The position numbers and the translations under genes were made by a program. Under the pieces are notes generated by a model, which saw only the letters and a program-made list of their open reading frames with translations, was not told where the DNA came from and did not search any database. Positions 8,748 through 25,110 of a DNA stretch of 64,000 bases are shown here, piece by piece (the first letter of the stretch is position 1; every line of letters starts with the position of its first letter). This stretch comes from an uncultured Bacillota bacterium (lineage in GTDB: Bacteria; Bacillota; DTU025; MWDF01), in contig CAWGMK010000004.1 of NCBI GenBank assembly GCA_963823655.1, forward strand, positions 32,001 to 96,000, read 5' to 3'.

Positions 8748-9333
8748 CTATTCGATCGCGCCATAAGTCTTTGCATACATGTCCCATGCCTTGAGGACTC
8801 GCCTAACGAATTCCCGGGTCTCCTCGAAGGGTATGTCGGACAAATTGTCCGCCTCTCCGGACCAAGTATTGCCTTCGATCCAGCCGTCTACATTCCCCAT
8901 CCCTGCATTGTAGGCGGCAATCGCAGCTGCCGGCTGTTCGTAGTCGTCCAGCAGAGTACGAGATATAGTAGGACCCTATCATGATATTGAAGTCCGAGTC
9001 GAGCAGCATATTGTCGTAGTAGTTGCCGGTGCCAAGCGTTTCGGCAACCCATTTCCCTGTGTCCGGCATAACTTGCATAAGGCCTATGGCGCCGCTTTTA
9101 GACTTGGCAGCCGATCTGAAATTGCTCTCCACTTTAATCAGGGCCATTATCAAGTACGGGTCGATGCCGAAAGCCTCTCCGTATTGCTTGGCCTTGTCCC
9201 AATGAAGCTTAGGGTATGTCAGCCTGTTCGGCAGGTTCGTAAAGAAGAGAGCTGCGATCAGAATGGCCGCAATGACCCTGAAAGCCAGCAGCAGATATAT
9301 AGGTTTTGAGCCTTTTGCGGCTTTTGCCGACAT
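8748..9333 (-). CDS. Soluble lytic transglycosylase (SLT domain), one frameshift near 8965
   Basis: ALIKVESNF, SGAIGLMQVMPDT. The other frame continues IAAYNAG...IPFEETREFVRRV to TAG at 8748. Confidence 0.85.
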
Positions 9334-19600: not shown

Positions 19601-21193
19601 CTAATATGCTATGGCAAGCCCGTCTTTCCTGGACTCCGTTCCTGCAATGTATACCCCATTCACATGATCCCTCATGATCATCTGCCCGCCGCCGAACATC
19701 GCATTGGAGTTTTCGGCTACCGCATCGTAGCCCATGGCCGCCATCTTATCGAGGACGTTCGAAAGGCCCTTCTCCAGGTGCAGCTTTTTCCCCTCCGATA
19801 CTCGGAACCTGGGCATGTCTATTCCTGCCTGAGGGTTCATACCCAGATCAACGATTGCCGATATCAGCTGGGCATGCCCCTGGGGCTGCATGTCCCCTCC
19901 CATTACCCCGAACGGGCCCACGGGGGATCCGTCCTTCATAAGAAAGCCCGGTATTATCGTGTGGAACGGCCTCTTGCCGGGTGCAAGCTCATTGGGGTGC
20001 CCTTCCTCGAGGCTGAAGCACGCTCCCCTGTTCTGCAGGCTTATTCCGTGCTCGGGCACGACTATCCCGCTGCCAAAGCCCATATAGTTGGACTGTATGA
20101 GGGACACCATCATGCCGTCGTTATCTGCGGCGCACAGGTAGACCGTACCCCCTTTATAAGGAAGGCCTGTCTCGGCAAGCTCCATAGCCCTTCCCGGGTT
20201 TATAAGGCGCGCGCTCTCCTTCGCATATTCCTTGTCCAACATCCGGGCGACCGGCACATCGCAAACCGACATGTCGCATACTCTGCTGTGCGCGTCGGCA
20301 AACGATAACCTTAAGGCCTCGGCGATCAGATTTACCCTTCTGGGATCATCTGCAGGAAGGCTTCCCATGTCATATCTTTCCATGAGGTTTAGCGCCATCA
20401 AGGCAACTATCCCCTGCCCGTTGGGCGGAATCTCATATACGTCATAGCCCCTGTAATTCACCGATATCGGATCCACCCACTCGTTGGAATGCCCCGCGAA
20501 ATCCTCCTTGCAGAAGTATCCGCCGCCCTTGTTTGAAGCTTCGACTATCGCATCGGCAAGATGCCCCCTGTAGAAGCATTCTCCCCCGCTTTCGCCGATC
20601 TGCCTGAGGCTTCTTGCGATGGCAGGGCTCTTGAAAAGCTCACCTGCCCTGGGGGCCCTTCCATCCCTCATGAATGTGCTTCTGAAGCCATCGTAGGAGC
20701 CAAGCCTTGAGGGCGCGAAGCCCCAGAAATAAGCAGTGACTGGAGAGACCGGGTAGCCCTCCTCCGCCATTTTCGCCGCAGGCTCCAGCACATCAGCCAG
20801 CCGCATCCTGCCGAACTTCGCATTGATGTCGGCCCAGCCCTTGACGACGCCGGGCACTGTTATCGGCTCCCAGCCGAGCAGCGGCACGCTCTTATGGCCC
20901 TTTGCCCTTAACATGCCGGCATTTAGCGCTTTGGGGGCCCTTCCTGATGCGTTAAGGCCGTGCAGCTTCTTTCCGTCCCAGATAATGGCGAAGAGGTCCG
21001 AACCCAGGCCGTTTGAGGTGGGTTCTGTGACCACGAGGGCGGCAGCCATGGCCAGGATCGCGTCCGCCGCGTTTCCCCCAGACCTCAATATGTCATATCC
21101 GGCAAGCGCGGCAGGCGCCGTGCTTGTCGCCACAGCTCCGTGTTTTCCCATAACCGCGCTCCTTCTGGACGGGAATTCCTGCGTGAAATCCAT
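19601..21193 (-). CDS. ggt: Gamma-glutamyltransferase family Ntn-hydrolase (YwrD-like)
   Basis: GGNAADA, TVPG, PPNGQG, nucleophile motif GGTVYL, LQNRG, KRPFHTIIPG, GVMGGDMQPQGH. Confidence 0.9.
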   Translation of the reverse strand: MDFTQEFPSRRSAVMGKHGAVATSTAPAALAGYDILRSGGNAADAILAMAAALVVTEPTSNGLGSDLFAIIWDGKKLHGLNASGRAPKALNAGMLRAKGHKSVPLLGWEPITVPGVVKGWADINAKFGRMRLADVLEPAAKMAEEGYPVSPVTAYFWGFAPSRLGSYDGFRSTFMRDGRAPRAGELFKSPAIARSLRQIGESGGECFYRGHLADAIVEASNKGGGYFCKEDFAGHSNEWVDPISVNYRGYDVYEIPPNGQGIVALMALNLMERYDMGSLPADDPRRVNLIAEALRLSFADAHSRVCDMSVCDVPVARMLDKEYAKESARLINPGRAMELAETGLPYKGGTVYLCAADNDGMMVSLIQSNYMGFGSGIVVPEHGISLQNRGACFSLEEGHPNELAPGKRPFHTIIPGFLMKDGSPVGPFGVMGGDMQPQGHAQLISAIVDLGMNPQAGIDMPRFRVSEGKKLHLEKGLSNVLDKMAAMGYDAVAENSNAMFGGGQMIMRDHVNGVYIAGTESRKDGLAIAY

Positions 21194-21282
21194 CTGGCAC
21201 CTCCATTAAAACCTTTAACCAGATTGTATCAGACGGGCGCGGGCTAGGCATATGTTAGAATGGATTCACCAAAAGGAGGCAT

Positions 21283-22377
21283 ATGATGAGAGAAAGCCTC
21301 ATTACGCCGCATGGCCCGATAAGCTTCCCCGCCTTCCTGCCGGATGCGACATACGGCGCGGTCAAGGCGGTAGATTCGCAAGACCTTTTAGATGCCGGGG
21401 TCCCTGCCCTGGTAATGAACGCATACCATCTGATGCAGAAGCCCGGCAGCACGACGGTGTCGGCTTTGGGCGGCATACACGAGATGAGCGCATGGGACCT
21501 TCCTATAATGACCGACTCGGGAGGCTTCCAGGCATATTCCGTAATAAAGGACGACCCTTCCAGGGGAAGCATAACCAAGGACGGCATTACTATCCTGCCG
21601 GAGGGGGCCAAAAGGAAATTCGCCCTCACGCCGGAGAAGTCAATACAGATCCAGCTGGCTTACGGCTCCGATATATTAGTCTGCCTGGACGAATGCACCC
21701 ATCCCGATGATGACAGGCAAGTCCAGGAGGGCGCGGTAAAAAGGACCCTTGAGTGGGCCGCAAGGTGCAAGGCGGAGTTTGAAAGGCTGATGTCGCAGAA
21801 GCGCGCAAGATCCGGCAGGCCGCTGCTATACGCAGTCGTGCAGGGCGGCAACTACGAGGACCTCAGGCTTGAATGCTCAAGGGAGCTTTCATCCATGGGA
21901 TTCGACGGGATGGGCTTCGGCGGCTGGCCGCTTGATAAGGACGGAATGCTCATAAAGGATATCTTAAGGACAGTGCGCGAGGGGCTGCCGGAGAGCATGC
22001 CGCTTCACGCGCTCGGCATAGGCCATCCTGATTATGTGATTGAGTGCTGGAACCTGGGATATGACACTTTCGACTGCTCGCTTCCCACAAGGGATGCGAG
22101 GCGCGGCAGGCTCTATACCTCAAGGGCGCCTGTAACGGACGCCACATTCGACAAGCGCTGGTTCAAATACGCCTATATGCAGGATGAGAAGTTCATAAAA
22201 GATAGATCTCCGGTGCAGCCCGGCTGCGACTGTCCCGTTTGCAGGGATTACAGCGCCGGCTACCTGCACCACCTGATGAAAAACGGCGAAGCCCTGTTCC
22301 AGAGGCTCGCCACAGTCCACAATCTAAGATTTATGACCGCGCTCACAGAAGAGCTCGGCAGAAGGGGCAGGCCATGA
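21283..22377 (+). CDS. tgt: tRNA-guanine transglycosylase family protein (atypical pocket)
   Basis: FLPDAT, MTDSGGFQ, LDECT, VQGG, HALGIG, FDCSLPTRDAR, and Zn site CDCPVC...HNL. Confidence 0.85.
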   Translation: MMRESLITPHGPISFPAFLPDATYGAVKAVDSQDLLDAGVPALVMNAYHLMQKPGSTTVSALGGIHEMSAWDLPIMTDSGGFQAYSVIKDDPSRGSITKDGITILPEGAKRKFALTPEKSIQIQLAYGSDILVCLDECTHPDDDRQVQEGAVKRTLEWAARCKAEFERLMSQKRARSGRPLLYAVVQGGNYEDLRLECSRELSSMGFDGMGFGGWPLDKDGMLIKDILRTVREGLPESMPLHALGIGHPDYVIECWNLGYDTFDCSLPTRDARRGRLYTSRAPVTDATFDKRWFKYAYMQDEKFIKDRSPVQPGCDCPVCRDYSAGYLHHLMKNGEALFQRLATVHNLRFMTALTEELGRRGRP

Positions 22378-23199
22378 CCGAAATGGACATCAGGGAGGGC
22401 ATGGCGCCAACTACAGCGGAGAAGCTGGCAGATTCAGTGCTGGGGCCAGTCGCCAGGCGCTTCATCTCGAGGCCTCTTGTCGTGAGGCTCGCCGAACAGG
22501 AGCTATCCAAGAGAAGCGAAAAAGAAGCCTTCAAAGAGGTGAAGGGCAGGCTGCACCAGCTGCTCCTATCATTCGAAGCCAGGCCCGCTGAATACCTCAA
22601 GCTGGCCAATGACCTGGCTGTCGCGGCGGCCGTCTGGGCAAGATGAGCTTAGAAAGGTCGCTCACAAGGGGCTGATGCTGCATGCCAGCACAAGAGAGCG
22701 CCTCATTTTCATGGAAGATTTCTACCGCAGGGTTTTCGAAGGGAAGGCTTACTCCAGCGTCGTAGACCTCGCCTGCGGGCTCAACCCGTTGTCTTTGCCA
22801 TGGATGGGCCTGCCTGAAAACGTAAGCTATCTGGCCGCAGATGCTTCGGACGGGCCGGGCGCAGCTGTTAGGTCGTTCTTCAAAGCCTGGGGCACCGATG
22901 GAAGATTCCTCCACTGCGACCTGTCCCAAGGGCTTCCGGAGGGCCGCTTCGACGTCGCGCTCCTGATGAAGGCCCTTCCTACGCTGGACCGGATCAAGGA
23001 GGGGCTTGGAATCGAGTGCGTAGACGCAGTCGATGCACCGGTTGTCGTGGTGAGCTTCCCTACCAGGAGCCTGGGTGGCAAGCGCAAAGGCATGGGGCGC
23101 AGCTACGAAGAGGGCTTTTCAGTCGCCGCAGACAAGGCAGGCTGGTCATATACGAAAATCGAGTTTCCGGGCGAGCTCGCCTTCATAGTCAGGAAGTGA
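22374..23199 (+). CDS. 16S rRNA m7G1405 methyltransferase family (ArmA/Rmt/FmrO/Sgm), one frameshift near 22620-22640
   Basis: KEVKGRLHQL, HASTRERL, VVDLACGLNP, DVALLMKALP, VVVSFPTRSLGG..KGM..SY. ATGA overlap with tgt. Confidence 0.85.
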
Positions 23200-23205
23200 T
23201 GCTAA

Positions 23206-23950
23206 TTGGATAAGGGCAAGCTGCATGTTGTAGCCACTCCTATAGGCAATATGGGCGATATTACCGCAAGGGCGGTTGAGGTGCTCAAAAGCGCGGACAT
23301 CGTCGCAAGCGAGGATACCAGGACCACCGGGATATTCCTAAGCAGGCTGGGCATAAAAAGGCCGCAGCTCTCCTTCCATTCTTTCAATGAAGAGGCGGCG
23401 GGCATGCGCATCGTTACGGAGCTGGAGCTGGGCAAGAACGTTGCTTTGGTATCCGATGCCGGCACTCCCGGAATATCGGATCCGGGCTATAGCATAGTCA
23501 AGCTGGCAGTTGAGAAGGGCTATGAAGTAACCATGGCCCCCGGGCCAACCGCGCTAATAATGGCCCTGGTACTATCCGCGCTGCCTACATCGAGCTTCAC
23601 TTTCAGGGGCTTCCCGCCGAGGACGTCATCGAAGAGGAGGAAATTCTTCGGCGAGGACATCAGAAAGCCCCCATACTCTGGTATACTACGAGAGTCCGCA
23701 CAGGCTGGTCGAATGCCTGCAAGATATGCTGCAGGCCCTTGGCGATCGCAGGATCGCATTGTGCAATGACCTGACCAAGAAGTTCGAAAATGTCATAAGA
23801 TGCAATATTTCTCAGGCTTTGGTCATGCTTGCAGGTGAGAAAGCCCTTTTGGGCGAATATGTTATCGTTGTGGAAAGCGCAGTCAAAGACAAAGTCAGAA
23901 AACTAAAAGGCAACAAATTCAGGCCGGAAGGTGATGCAGATGGCGAGTAA
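23206..23950 (+). CDS. rsmI: 16S rRNA C1402 2'-O-methyltransferase, frameshift near 23665
   Basis: LHVVATPIGNMGDIT, SEDTR, VSDAGTPGISDPG, GFPPR. Second frame continues ...NDLTKKFE...GEYVIVV. Confidence 0.9.
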
Positions 23951-25110
23951 TGGAGGCAATTCCAGAGGTATCCTCGGTTGGCTGGTACTTCTGATAGTAA
24001 TACTTGGCATAGCTGCCGCATTTTTCGCTTTCAACCTTGATGAGCTGGCCAAGTATGAGTATTACAAGCTTACCTACAAAGTATCGGACGACCCTGCCGC
24101 AAAGGACTTCTCCGGGTTTTATTCCAGGAAATCGGGCAGCATTAGCGTCTCCATGGATATTCGGGCCTTCACCCTCTATGCCTTCCTTGAGGGCGTCGCG
24201 GGATATGAGGACGAGTACGGTGCCACGAAAAGCAAGGAGAGGCAGCAGCTCGACAACGATATGGAATCGAGGCTTGCCGCAGTTCCTGCAAGCAGGATCA
24301 AGCGCTGGAAGGACTTCTACGACAAGCATCCCTACAATGTCTATACATACTTGCATTACGTGCTTGCCCTCGGGACGCCCGCCGGAGTTCGAGTACATAA
24401 TCCCCAAGGCCGACATCGATGAAAAGGATTTCTTCATGCTGGGCGGATTCAACAAGGTGCTAAAGGACTTCTACGAGATACTGAAGATCGACGAGCTCTA
24501 TGCCTGGCATAAAAGCGCCGGCTTCTTCAAAGTCGTAGATGCTTATGACCTGGCCAAATTGCTCGAACAGCAGAAATTCGTGCATAAGTATCTGAGGATA
24601 GACTCGAGCAGGACGTCCCAGATATCGCTTAATGTAATCCCCATGCCCTATGAATCGCACTATGTCGCCTATTCAGTGACGTATGGGCACATGGCCTACT
24701 TAATAGACGGGCCGGACGCCTCGGACGGGAACCTTAATTGGCATGAGTACCTGCATGTATTCGTAAGCCCTGCCGTGAAGAACACGATTTGGGCCTATCA
24801 GTCGAAGTTCAACGACATCTTCGAGAGGAACCGACAGAAGGAATACGTTAAGGGCAGCTATGAGAGGCTTGATTCCTTCGTGGCCGAGTGCATCATAAGG
24901 GCCCTGGATCACAAAATCCAGGTAGCTTACGCGCCGTCATGGGCTAAGGACTCCTTACTGAAGAAGCTCAATGACATGGAGAAGGCCGAGATACTAAACG
25001 GCTTCGCCCTTATCCCATACTTCTCGCAGGAGCTGAGCAAATTCGAGACCGAAGGTGCAATAGACATAACGTCCTTCGTGAAGAAGACTTTATCCGATTA
25101 CACGAATTAG
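23940..25110 (+). CDS. Membrane-anchored HExxH protein (DUF4932-like putative metallopeptidase), frameshift near 24380
   Basis: N-terminal TM helix, then WHEYLHVFV and ECIIRA in the second frame. Start overlaps the rsmI stop. Confidence 0.6.

Follow-up and report, generated by a model that had tools for sequence, protein, structure and literature searches.

A gene of an uncultured Bacillota bacterium (assembly GCA_963823655.1, contig CAWGMK010000004.1; genome G000 below), at positions 21283–22377 of the stretch analysed here, is by its sequence and genomic context a true second TGT paralog and not the tRNA enzyme. The subfamily to which it belongs, marked by the motif GGWP in an altered base pocket, is linked or fused to enzymes of the ribosomal decoding site in four phyla. 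On balance, these features favor a catalytically competent guanine-exchange enzyme that acts on helix 44 of 16S rRNA, possibly on m7G1405. We know of no base exchange and no 7-deazaguanine in any rRNA.

The window, a stretch of 64,000 nucleotides of the contig, contains the following features at this locus:

21273–21279, + strand: Shine–Dalgarno-like AAGGAGG, read from the letters, 3 nt 5′ of the ATG at 21283 and 6 nt 5′ of a second ATG at 21286
21283–22377, + strand: TGT paralog ("TGT2", GGWP type), intact ORF of 364 aa; Pfam TGT (PF01702), 320.8 bits
22374–22646, + strand: Rmt/FmrO-like 16S rRNA methyltransferase, N-terminal piece of 90 aa, from tblastn to intact same-genus genes
22630–22633, + strand: frame break in the Rmt-like gene, one extra base relative to contigs of related strains
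22609–23199, + strand: Rmt/FmrO-like methyltransferase, C-terminal piece (SAM-binding and catalytic domain); Pfam FmrO, 142 bits
23206–23769, + strand: rsmI (16S rRNA C1402 2′-O-methyltransferase), N-terminal piece; TIGR00096, 153.5 bits
23661, + strand: frame break in rsmI, one extra base relative to contigs of related strains
23663–23950 (listed ORF 23726–23950), + strand: rsmI, C-terminal piece in a second frame; tblastn and TIGR00096, 43.8 bits
23931–25110, + strand: downstream HEYLH (HExxH) gene in two frames, 23931–24422 and 24037–25110, with an extra base near 24371

The genes follow one another as closely as a previous reading, made from the sequence only, had described. The TGA of the paralog overlaps the ATG of the Rmt-like frame (ATGA, 22374–22377), 6 nt separate the end of that frame at 23199 from the TTG start of rsmI at 23206, and the next gene begins, at 23931, before the rsmI frame ends at 23950. 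The proposed operon therefore stands as far as its genes, overlaps and motifs are concerned; the earlier reading had been silent on the splitting of three consecutive genes (Rmt-like, rsmI and HExxH), each of which lies in two frames in this assembly. All three are single-frame in six of six same-genus genomes. Using contigs from four public runs of three studies, which represent strains roughly 95–99% identical, we found the extra base at 22630–22633 absent from all four runs, that at 23661 absent from the three runs covering it (X1, X2 and X4), and that at 24371 absent from both covering runs. Dropping base 23661 restored an rsmI frame that reads ...ESPHTLVYYESPHR and so matches the relative L027. 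A break in the C5 run at 23668–23672 was also considered and rejected, since the contigs place the extra base at 23661, outside any homopolymer. Against one same-genus genome, genes of the 64-kb window that are otherwise conserved change frame in at least 13 places. Because the related-strain contigs lack the extra bases and frame breaks occur throughout the window, the three one-base insertions are probably assembly errors rather than gene decay, and on the same grounds we rejected the view that the module is decaying into pseudogenes in this genome.

The fold of the paralog is not in doubt. Besides PF01702 (cut-off 26.3 bits), it matches the superfamily profile TIGR00449 with 302.4 bits (cut-off 47.6), and its best solved matches are 2ash (212.3 bits) and the E. 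coli and Z. mobilis Tgt chains (~200 bits). It is 35–41% identical to tRNA Tgt and retains the zinc subdomain. The more specific models were not reached, namely the Tgt equivalog TIGR00430 (294.9 bits against a cut-off of 306.75), the archaeosine TGT (TgtA) model TIGR00432 (107.8 against 350) and the DpdA model NF041059 (25.3 against 200); comparison with the solved archaeosine TGT chain 1iq8 gave just 43.6 bits.

Relative to bacterial Tgt as represented by the Z. mobilis, E. coli and T. maritima structures, the paralog shares the fold family, the catalytic Asp pair, DSGG and the Zn site. The motifs read earlier from the sequence (DSGG, FDC and the Cys/His zinc site) are indeed all present, as is LDEC, with catalytic D78, D136 and D264 equivalent to D102, D156 and D280, Q187 and G213–G214 equivalent to Gln203 and Gly229–230, and C315/C317/C320/H346 forming the Zn site. 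Across 44 clade members, D78, S79, G80, G81, Q83, Q187, G188, G213 and G214 are conserved in 100%, D136 in 98%, D264 in 95% and the Zn ligands in 89–98%.

The differences from bacterial Tgt concentrate in the pocket and at the N-terminus. Replacement of the specificity loop by GGWPLD, a claim of the same reading, was borne out by alignment: GGWPLDK aligns to the GGLS/AxGE of solved Tgt chains (GGLSIGE, GGLAVGE), with W215–P216 in place of Leu231–Ala232, the latter position now a proline without an NH, and K219 in place of Glu235. Its Leu at the Met260 position and its short N-terminal segment were likewise correctly read, the paralog having about 16 N-terminal residues fewer than canonical Tgt. 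The canonical GGL(A/S)VGE pocket, with its Leu231/Ala232 switch, Glu235 and Met260, is therefore not found in the paralog. These changes extend to the clade, where W-P replaces L-A/S, Met is changed to Leu in 93% of members, and conservation is lost for the canonical Glu, which all 59 canonical rows share. Three Arg residues at canonical positions 18, 69 and 244 (numbering of the G000 copy) are conserved in canonical Tgt and not in the GGWP clade. In canonical Tgt, the switch peptide presents its NH to guanine and its C=O to preQ1, and Glu235 holds it in place (PMC3660597, in part). With Trp-Pro for Leu231–Ala232 and no Glu235, the pocket of the paralog would be unable to offer an NH to guanine N7.

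A separate canonical tgt, which the sequence-only reading had proposed looking for next to queA, is present elsewhere in G000: it scores 529.2 bits on PF01702, carries GGLSVGE and lies between queA (371.4 bits) and yajC (81.1 bits), so the paralog is not the only tgt of this genome. A canonical-type TGT match of at least 380 bits was also found in 24 of 26 carrier genomes, with fragments in one and none in one, and the paralog never lies beside queA here. Phylogenetic analysis placed 41 of 45 GGW rows in one clade with a support of 99 (FastTree, 138 rows); in an IQ-TREE quick tree of 68 rows, with row groups taken from the earlier FastTree, the 28 TGT2 rows fell on one side of a branch with an SH-aLRT of 99. 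GGWP occurs in 120 of the 120 best near-length matches, and at least 3,245 clusters at 90% identity were counted at E ≤ 1e-80 among 8,000 scored candidates. Public records, where they name GGWP family members, call them Tgt, and one GGWPLD protein record gives the cultured species Longilinea arvoryzae as its source.

The tgt/rmt/rsmI neighbourhood, whose conservation had been named as a check, reaches well beyond the genus. A second family of the order has the module in a rearranged form, and it also occurs in Chloroflexota, a Chthonomonadaceae MAG and a Coatesbacteria MAG. The paralog adjoins the Rmt/FmrO gene in 6/6 same-genus genomes, in 4/4 genomes of the other family, in 10/15 loci from other phyla and in 25/28 Chloroflexota carriers from an even sample of 151 genomes; of the remaining Chloroflexota pairs, two of the 28 lie on different contigs and one is 1.3 kb apart. 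Four of the 15 other-phylum loci have no gene for any of the three rRNA enzymes within about 5 kb of the paralog. Adjacency of rsmI was seen in 6/6, 4/4, 5/15 and 10/27 genomes of four sets, and an RsmF-type gene lies upstream in divergent orientation in 6/15 loci and beside the cluster in 3/27 sample genomes. The gene orders observed are TGT-FmrO-RsmI, RsmI-TGT-FmrO, FmrO-TGT and RsmI-FmrO-TGT, sometimes with a divergent RsmF. Clustering of the ORFs within about 5 kb at 20 loci revealed nothing common across lineages except FmrO, RsmI and RsmF, and no base-biosynthesis gene or transporter shared across lineages.

Among 41 relatives, FmrO is present in 12 of 12 genomes with the paralog and in none of 29 without it, and within one genus species have both genes or neither. 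FmrO was found in 26/26 carriers and in 0/14 control genomes, and the 151 Chloroflexota genomes comprise 28 with both genes, 121 with neither and two with FmrO only, where it lies at contig edges or is fragmentary; because related genomes share their history, fewer independent events lie behind all these counts than the figures suggest. The arrangement is far beyond chance. Three TGT-FmrO fusions (P0005, P0152 and P0153) are 57–60% identical, colinear over about 638 aa and found on several contigs, and P0151 is an independent TGT-FmrO fusion. An RsmI-TGT fusion, P0010, was seen just once, on a contig of 5.8 kb, and misassembly could account for it.

These data bear on the most serious alternative, that the paralog has stayed with tRNA and inserts another base (preQ0, queuine or another salvaged base) or acts on another tRNA or position, its methylase neighbourhood reflecting co-regulation. 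The 35–41% identity to tRNA Tgt and the zinc subdomain leave room for a tRNA substrate, all catalytic and Zn residues are kept, the TIGR00430 score falls just below its cut-off and the public records name family members Tgt. In the TGT family, altered pockets change base preference (PMC3660597 and PMC5699537, both in part). We nevertheless regard this alternative as unlikely, at perhaps one chance in a handful: a canonical tgt-queA pair coexists in nearly all carriers, the three Arg residues of canonical Tgt are not conserved in the clade, and co-regulation alone is insufficient to account for an otherwise rare Rmt-like gene in all carriers and for the maintained fusions. Departure of the GGWP subfamily from the tRNA queuosine pathway appears somewhat the better supposition, taken as part of the whole explanation that we propose below.

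ArmA/Rmt-family enzymes form m7G1405, RsmI forms Cm1402 and RsmF belongs to the m5C1407 family, all in helix 44 of 16S rRNA. In the window, the FmrO match of the partner covers profile positions 73–253 of 255 within its C-terminal piece; the N-terminal 90-aa piece alone has no Pfam match and shares a frame with the C-terminal part in same-genus genes. An intact relative of the partner aligns over its full length to Sgm (residues 12–274 to 14–281, 139.6 bits) and gives 110.3 bits against RmtB, in an alignment that takes in the N-terminal domain. The motifs KLHQ, HxSTxER, DxACGLNP and SFPTxSLGGRxKGM are conserved across 20 sequences, and Pfam FmrO scores of the partners range from 136 to 236 bits. 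By sequence, the partner thus looks like a genuine 30S enzyme. It does not reach the curated Rmt equivalog NF000466 (cut-off 250), on which the window piece scores 156.3 bits and five intact relatives, including the fusion P0005, score 175.3–224 bits, and it therefore falls outside the curated m7G1405 family. Like Rmt, ArmA and Sgm of aminoglycoside producers and resistant pathogens, the partner is full length with conserved motifs; unlike them, it is chromosomal in lineages of anaerobic digesters, sediment and soil, and accompanies the TGT paralog in every carrier, the two fragmentary FmrO-only genomes apart. No aminoglycoside biosynthesis genes lie beside it in the loci read. A complex prediction for the intact same-genus paralog and its Rmt-like partner, with input alignments of 33 and 20 rows, respectively, and no controls folded, scored 0.00 against a mark of 0.32.

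The rsmI gene of the window shows true homology in its N-terminal piece up to near 23660–23697, and its C-terminal piece is matched by residues 207–301 of the L027 RsmI (tblastn). Split in this way, its two pieces score 153.5 and 43.8 bits on TIGR00096 (cut-off 167.9), and an intact same-genus RsmI scores 209 bits. G000 has no rsmI other than this copy, the gene is intact in relatives, and some Chloroflexota have a second rsmI inside the cluster. The RsmF-type neighbour combines PF01189 with the RsmF N, C and PUA domains, and so has all four RsmF domains. Compared with housekeeping RsmI and RsmF, the RsmI of the relatives passes its profile and the RsmF is complete in its domains; the difference is that both are tied here to an accessory pair, with RsmI fused to the TGT in one sequence. 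The HEYLH gene, which has an N-terminal hydrophobic segment and whose intact relative matches DUF4932 weakly (23.3 bits, below the cut-off of 28.7), was found in the genus only and thus lies outside the conserved module.

A second alternative is that paralog and partner have both been retargeted to another nucleic acid, RNA or DNA, and that the rsmI/rsmF context is historical. The sub-threshold NF000466 scores of the partner (175–224 bits) fit such a shift, and DpdA, a tgt paralog that moved to DNA, where it inserts preQ0, and whose substrate was first predicted from gene clustering, offers a precedent (PMC5699537, in part). The paralog of the window has little sequence relation to DpdA, as its 25.3 bits on that model indicate, and its neighbours are rRNA methyltransferase genes rather than DNA-metabolism genes. 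Given also the full-length alignment of the partner to Sgm and RmtB, N-terminal domain included, and the three different helix-44 enzyme genes that flank the pair in various lineages and gene orders, we consider joint retargeting improbable.

A touch less credible again is a non-catalytic role, in which the paralog would serve as an RNA-binding or targeting subunit for the methyltransferases, much as QTRT2 does for QTRT1. Fusion to and translational coupling with a methyltransferase would suit such a subunit, as would loss of the Glu235 switch, but the nucleophile, the acid/base Asp, DSGG, Gln and Gly-Gly are kept at 95–100% in the 44 clade members, which is unexpected for a scaffold. As for transfer, the window TGT and RsmI are 51–57% and 55–61% identical to Chloroflexota copies and only 46–47% and 45–51% identical to those of another family of their own order, which suggests that they were transferred as a cassette. 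That the three genes merely travelled together once, in an arrangement without functional meaning, is very hard to credit, since linkage persists while gene order varies between lineages, species of one genus have both genes or neither, the TGT-FmrO fusions are conserved at 57–60% identity, and identities of 45–60% exclude that the counts stem from one recent clone.

The preferred reading thus remains a guanine-exchange enzyme of the decoding site. A non-tRNA target such as 16S rRNA, already suggested from the window alone, gains support from comparative genomics, namely the paralogy, synteny, fusions, FmrO co-occurrence and rsmF. From paralogy, clade, catalytic residues, altered pocket, linkage, co-occurrence and fusions, we infer an RNA substrate, a position, an order of two reactions and an inserted base. 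The module would consist of the paralog and an Rmt/FmrO-type m7G1405 methyltransferase, often with RsmI (Cm1402) or RsmF, and would act on the small subunit at the 5′ strand of helix 44, within 16S nucleotides 1402–1407. The three 16S genes of G000 read CCGCCCGTCACACC, so the target site is ordinary. In the proposed sequence of events, the Rmt-like enzyme would methylate N7 of G1405, removing a hydrogen-bond acceptor and making the base a better leaving group; the paralog would then attack C1′, release the base and insert a 7-substituted 7-deazaguanine, for example salvaged preQ1. This two-step scheme, in which a dedicated paralog exchanges the m7G left by the Rmt-type enzyme for a 7-deazaguanine-type base, is tentative, and we would put it at about one chance in four. 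Methylating a base just to remove it looks wasteful; alternatively, each enzyme might have a nucleotide of its own, or the two might work on separate populations of ribosomes.

Base supply was also considered. G000 has QueT, and QueC, QueF and YhhQ were not found, so preQ1 would be available to it only through salvage. True QueC occurs in just 3 of 26 carriers, and a 7-deazaguanine would therefore need salvage in most of them. Queuosine genes give no indication of the incoming base, since the canonical Tgt present in nearly all carriers requires a source of 7-deazaguanine in any case.

In openly searchable main texts, we found no paper linking TGT to FmrO/Rmt genes or to rRNA and no description of an rRNA transglycosylase or an rRNA 7-deazaguanine. 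The portion consulted of a 2016 review (PMC5699537) makes no mention of such a paralog.

Because GGWP members, where named, are annotated as Tgt, reconstructions of the queuosine pathway in which they are counted are probably wrong in many Chloroflexota and some Bacillota. The partner, for its part, resembles 16S-RMTase resistance genes, so a housekeeping module may be entered as resistance when the resistomes of wastewater and digesters are surveyed. TGT enzymes are known on tRNA and, as DpdA, on DNA. If the proposal is correct, rRNA would be the third class of TGT substrate, and the ribosome would be modified in a chemically new way exactly where aminoglycosides and decoding meet. Under the two-step scheme, this would be the first instance of base exchange in ribosomal RNA, and some environmental members of the "aminoglycoside-resistance methyltransferase" family would in reality perform the priming step of a housekeeping pathway for the decoding site.

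The TGT paralog heads a row of four plus-strand genes and is preceded by a divergent one:

19601-21193, minus strand: gamma-glutamyltranspeptidase gene, divergent, preceding the TGT paralog
21283-22377, plus strand: TGT paralog, intact, 364 aa
Frame end at 23199, plus strand: Rmt/FmrO-like methyltransferase gene, second in the row
TTG start at 23206, end at 23950, plus strand: rsmI, third in the row
23931-25110, plus strand: HExxH-motif gene, fourth in the row

The coupling proposed by the sequence-only reading was borne out: an ATGA read at 22374-22377 ties the paralog to the next gene, 6 nt separate the Rmt-like frame end from the rsmI TTG, and rsmI overlaps the HExxH gene. That reading had missed that these last three genes are each divided over two frames in the assembly of the genome under study (G000); all three are single-frame in 6/6 same-genus genomes. 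Strain contigs from four public runs of three studies, ~95–99% identical to the window, have exactly one base fewer at 22630-22633 (4/4 runs), at 23661 (X1, X2 and X4; contigs of X5 do not reach it) and at 24371 (X1 and X2; contigs of X4 and X5 do not reach it). Set against one same-genus genome, the 64-kb window contains 13 or more conserved genes or parts of genes that switch frame, for example near 8955, 36050, 39170, 48064, 52100, 53350, 54200, 55200 and 55632. Since related contigs lack the extra bases, breaks abound window-wide and relatives are single-frame, we read the three breaks as probable assembly errors in genes intact in the organism. The assembly seems to carry about one indel per 5 kb, and its gene calls need caution. 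The gene starting inside the end of rsmI (counterpart L027:8651-9823; 390 aa if intact) carries HEYLH and, at the N-terminus, a hydrophobic segment; DUF4932 matches it weakly, below the cut-off (23.3 bits). The gene was found in the window's genus alone (6/6 genomes), not in other carriers.

G000 holds two TGT-family genes. The separate canonical tgt that the earlier reading proposed to look for (529.2 bits, motif GGLSVGE) lies in the classical arrangement, flanked by queA (371.4 bits) and yajC (81.1 bits). The adjacent queA ORF (L001:2616-3479, contig C13) covers only profile positions 48–322 of 322, its N-terminus probably lost to another frame break. The paralog scores 320.8 bits against Pfam TGT and 294.9 against the curated Tgt equivalog (cut-off 306.75, not reached), and falls far beneath the cut-offs of the archaeosine TGT and DpdA models. 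A canonical-type match of at least 380 bits is also present in 24 of 26 carrier genomes; the canonical TGT is fragmented in one of the remaining two and absent from the other. A full QueC match, QueF and a YhhQ-type transporter were not found in G000, which encodes a QueT-type transporter (G000:C13:521196-521648) ~12 kb from the canonical tgt; from this pattern, the organism seems to depend on salvage for its queuosine precursor. Full-length QueC occurs in only 3/26 paralog carriers. Bacterial Tgt is among the closest known proteins: the paralog shares its chemistry but differs in clade, pocket and gene context. We consider it unlikely that it is a tRNA enzyme with altered specificity.

An exhaustive HMMER search returned 9,319 relatives (E ≤ 0.001). 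A FastTree built from 138 full-length rows grouped 41/45 GGW-motif rows in one clade (support 99), distinct from a canonical clade (82 rows); a quick IQ-TREE without outgroup (68 rows, groups defined from the earlier FastTree) set the 28 paralog-clade members off by a branch with SH-aLRT 99. Among 8,000 candidates scored in a larger protein collection, at least 3,245 clusters (90% identity) matched at E ≤ 1e-80, and GGWP was present in 120/120 best matches. Clade proteins are named Tgt where their sources name them, and one comes from cultured Longilinea arvoryzae. Record titles assign the carriers in the window's genus to uncultured Clostridia/Bacillota MAGs and the others to many Chloroflexota and one MAG each of Chthonomonadaceae and Coatesbacteria. 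The window paralog and RsmI are nearer to Chloroflexota copies (51–57% and 55–61% identity) than to those of another family of its own order (46–47% and 45–51%), which suggests that the module, rsmI included, was transferred between phyla as a cassette. As a separate curiosity of the TGT family, nine proteins (P0157, P0160-P0167; ~1,350–1,390 aa; Tsukamurella in 3/9, where named) combine TGT with an MMPL membrane domain (PF03176).

Conservation of the tgt/rmt/rsmI neighbourhood extends beyond the genus, to another family of the order and to other phyla, in changed orders. All six same-genus genomes show GGT | TGT-FmrO-RsmI-HExxH | FtsX; 4/4 genomes of the other family share RsmI-TGT-FmrO, and a fifth, fragmentary one has a TGT fragment beside FmrO. 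Of the 15 other-phyla loci, 10 have FmrO next to the paralog and 5 have RsmI there; four (L046, L049, L050, L052) have no rRNA enzyme gene near the paralog, and their genomes carry FmrO elsewhere. The window rsmI is the sole copy in G000. In 10/27 published Chloroflexota carriers rsmI abuts the TGT-FmrO pair, the gene order taking three forms; a second rsmI lies elsewhere in three of these 10. RsmF acts at C1407. A divergent upstream gene belongs to the same blastp cluster in 6/15 other-phyla loci, and one scanned member has RsmB/F catalytic and RsmF N-terminal, C-terminal and PUA domains. The RsmF N-domain is matched in only 4/27 Chloroflexota sample genomes, and one such match adjoins an FmrO gene in 4/4 and the TGT cluster in 3/4; two Chloroflexota genomes have RsmI-TGT-FmrO-FmrO'-RsmF in a row. 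Comparing loci from several lineages revealed no common neighbours beyond FmrO, RsmI and RsmF. NCBIfam assigns RsmI to C1402 and Rmt to G1405.

An intact same-genus partner aligns full length, N-terminal domain included, with both Sgm and RmtB (139.6 and 110.3 bits), and 20 partners keep KLHQ, HxSTxER, DxACGLNP, LLKxLP and SFPTxSLGGRxKGM. The partners score 175–224 bits against the curated Rmt model (cut-off 250, not reached); by sequence they are relatives of resistance enzymes outside the curated Rmt set. Rmt/Sgm enzymes are the closest known proteins to the partner. In several Chloroflexota the first FmrO gene is followed in tandem by a second, diverged paralog, and in three sampled genomes an RsmF-type gene comes directly after that:

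L039:5505-6029, second FmrO paralog
L042:7944-8750, second FmrO paralog
G131:C1:1117597-1118250, second FmrO paralog
G203:C4:22359-23006, second FmrO paralog
G185:C101:2419-3060, second FmrO paralog

All three G000 16S genes carry CCGCCCGTCACACC, where, in E. coli numbering, G1405 lies between C1404 and U1406. This context resembles G34-U35 of Tgt substrates. A joint retargeting of paralog and partner to another nucleic acid seems improbable.

When the paralog is aligned to the solved Tgt of T. maritima and E. coli, its GGWPLDK falls on GGLSIGE and GGLAVGE. Across 44 clade members, the Asp, Ser, Gly and Gly of DSGG, the Gln of DSGGxQ, Gln187, Gly188 and Gly213-214 are 100% conserved, Asp136 98%, Asp264 95% and the zinc ligands 89–98%. 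The paralog would still carry out base exchange, and a role as a non-catalytic subunit is improbable. The Glu235 equivalent, present in 100% of 59 canonical rows, is not conserved in the clade, which has also lost three arginines conserved in those rows and ~16 N-terminal residues; the Met260 position is Leu in 93% of members. As described in PMC3660597, the Leu231/Ala232 peptide of Z. mobilis Tgt presents NH to bound guanine and carbonyl to preQ1, and Glu235 holds either state. Proline at position 232 leaves no NH to expose and nothing for Glu235 to hold. We infer that the paralog would recognise neither of the bases it handles by hydrogen-bonding to N7; on this reasoning, such a pocket would suit N7-methylguanine or a 7-deazaguanine.

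Among 151 evenly sampled Chloroflexota genomes (paralog called at E ≤ 1e-85), the paralog occurs in 28 (one, G093, unpublished), FmrO in 30 and neither in 121. FmrO was found in 28/28 carriers; of the two FmrO-only genomes, one has its match 518 nt from the start of a contig and the other a fragment with stops. The pair lies within 342 nt in 25 carriers, at 1.3 kb in one and on separate contigs in two. FmrO occurs in exactly the 12 of the window's 41 relatives with the paralog (0/29 others), one genus splitting into both-gene and neither-gene genomes, and in 0/14 control genomes. The two are also fused:

P0005, TGT-FmrO fusion, 628 aa
P0152, TGT-FmrO fusion, 641 aa
P0153, TGT-FmrO fusion, 643 aa

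These three clusters are 57–60% identical and colinear over ~638 residues, and two have two members each, from different contigs and sources. A long linker marks P0151 (709 aa), a separate TGT-FmrO fusion; G070 has FmrO-TGT inside one 646-aa open frame, and P0010 (710 aa; known from just one sequence, on a 5.8-kb contig) fuses RsmI to TGT. Mere hitch-hiking of the genes is scarcely credible. P0154 (696 aa; 2 members on 1 contig) joins RsmE domains (PF04452, PF20260; the 16S rRNA m3U1498 methylase family) to a TGT domain without canonical or GGW motif, and may represent either a further fusion of an rRNA enzyme with TGT or an artefact of gene calling.

Among freely accessible main texts, we found no paper that links a TGT to FmrO or describes one with rRNA as its substrate, nor any such TGT in the portion of PMC5699537 covered. 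The discovery logic is that of DpdA, another of the closest known proteins, which sits on an unrelated branch. As far as comparative genomics reaches, the evidence supports the earlier proposal of a non-tRNA target within a decoding-site module. On balance, the paralog may well be an rRNA-directed guanine transglycosylase on helix 44, working with the Rmt-like enzyme. In the version we prefer, tentatively, the Rmt-like enzyme would first methylate G1405, and the TGT paralog would then swap the base.
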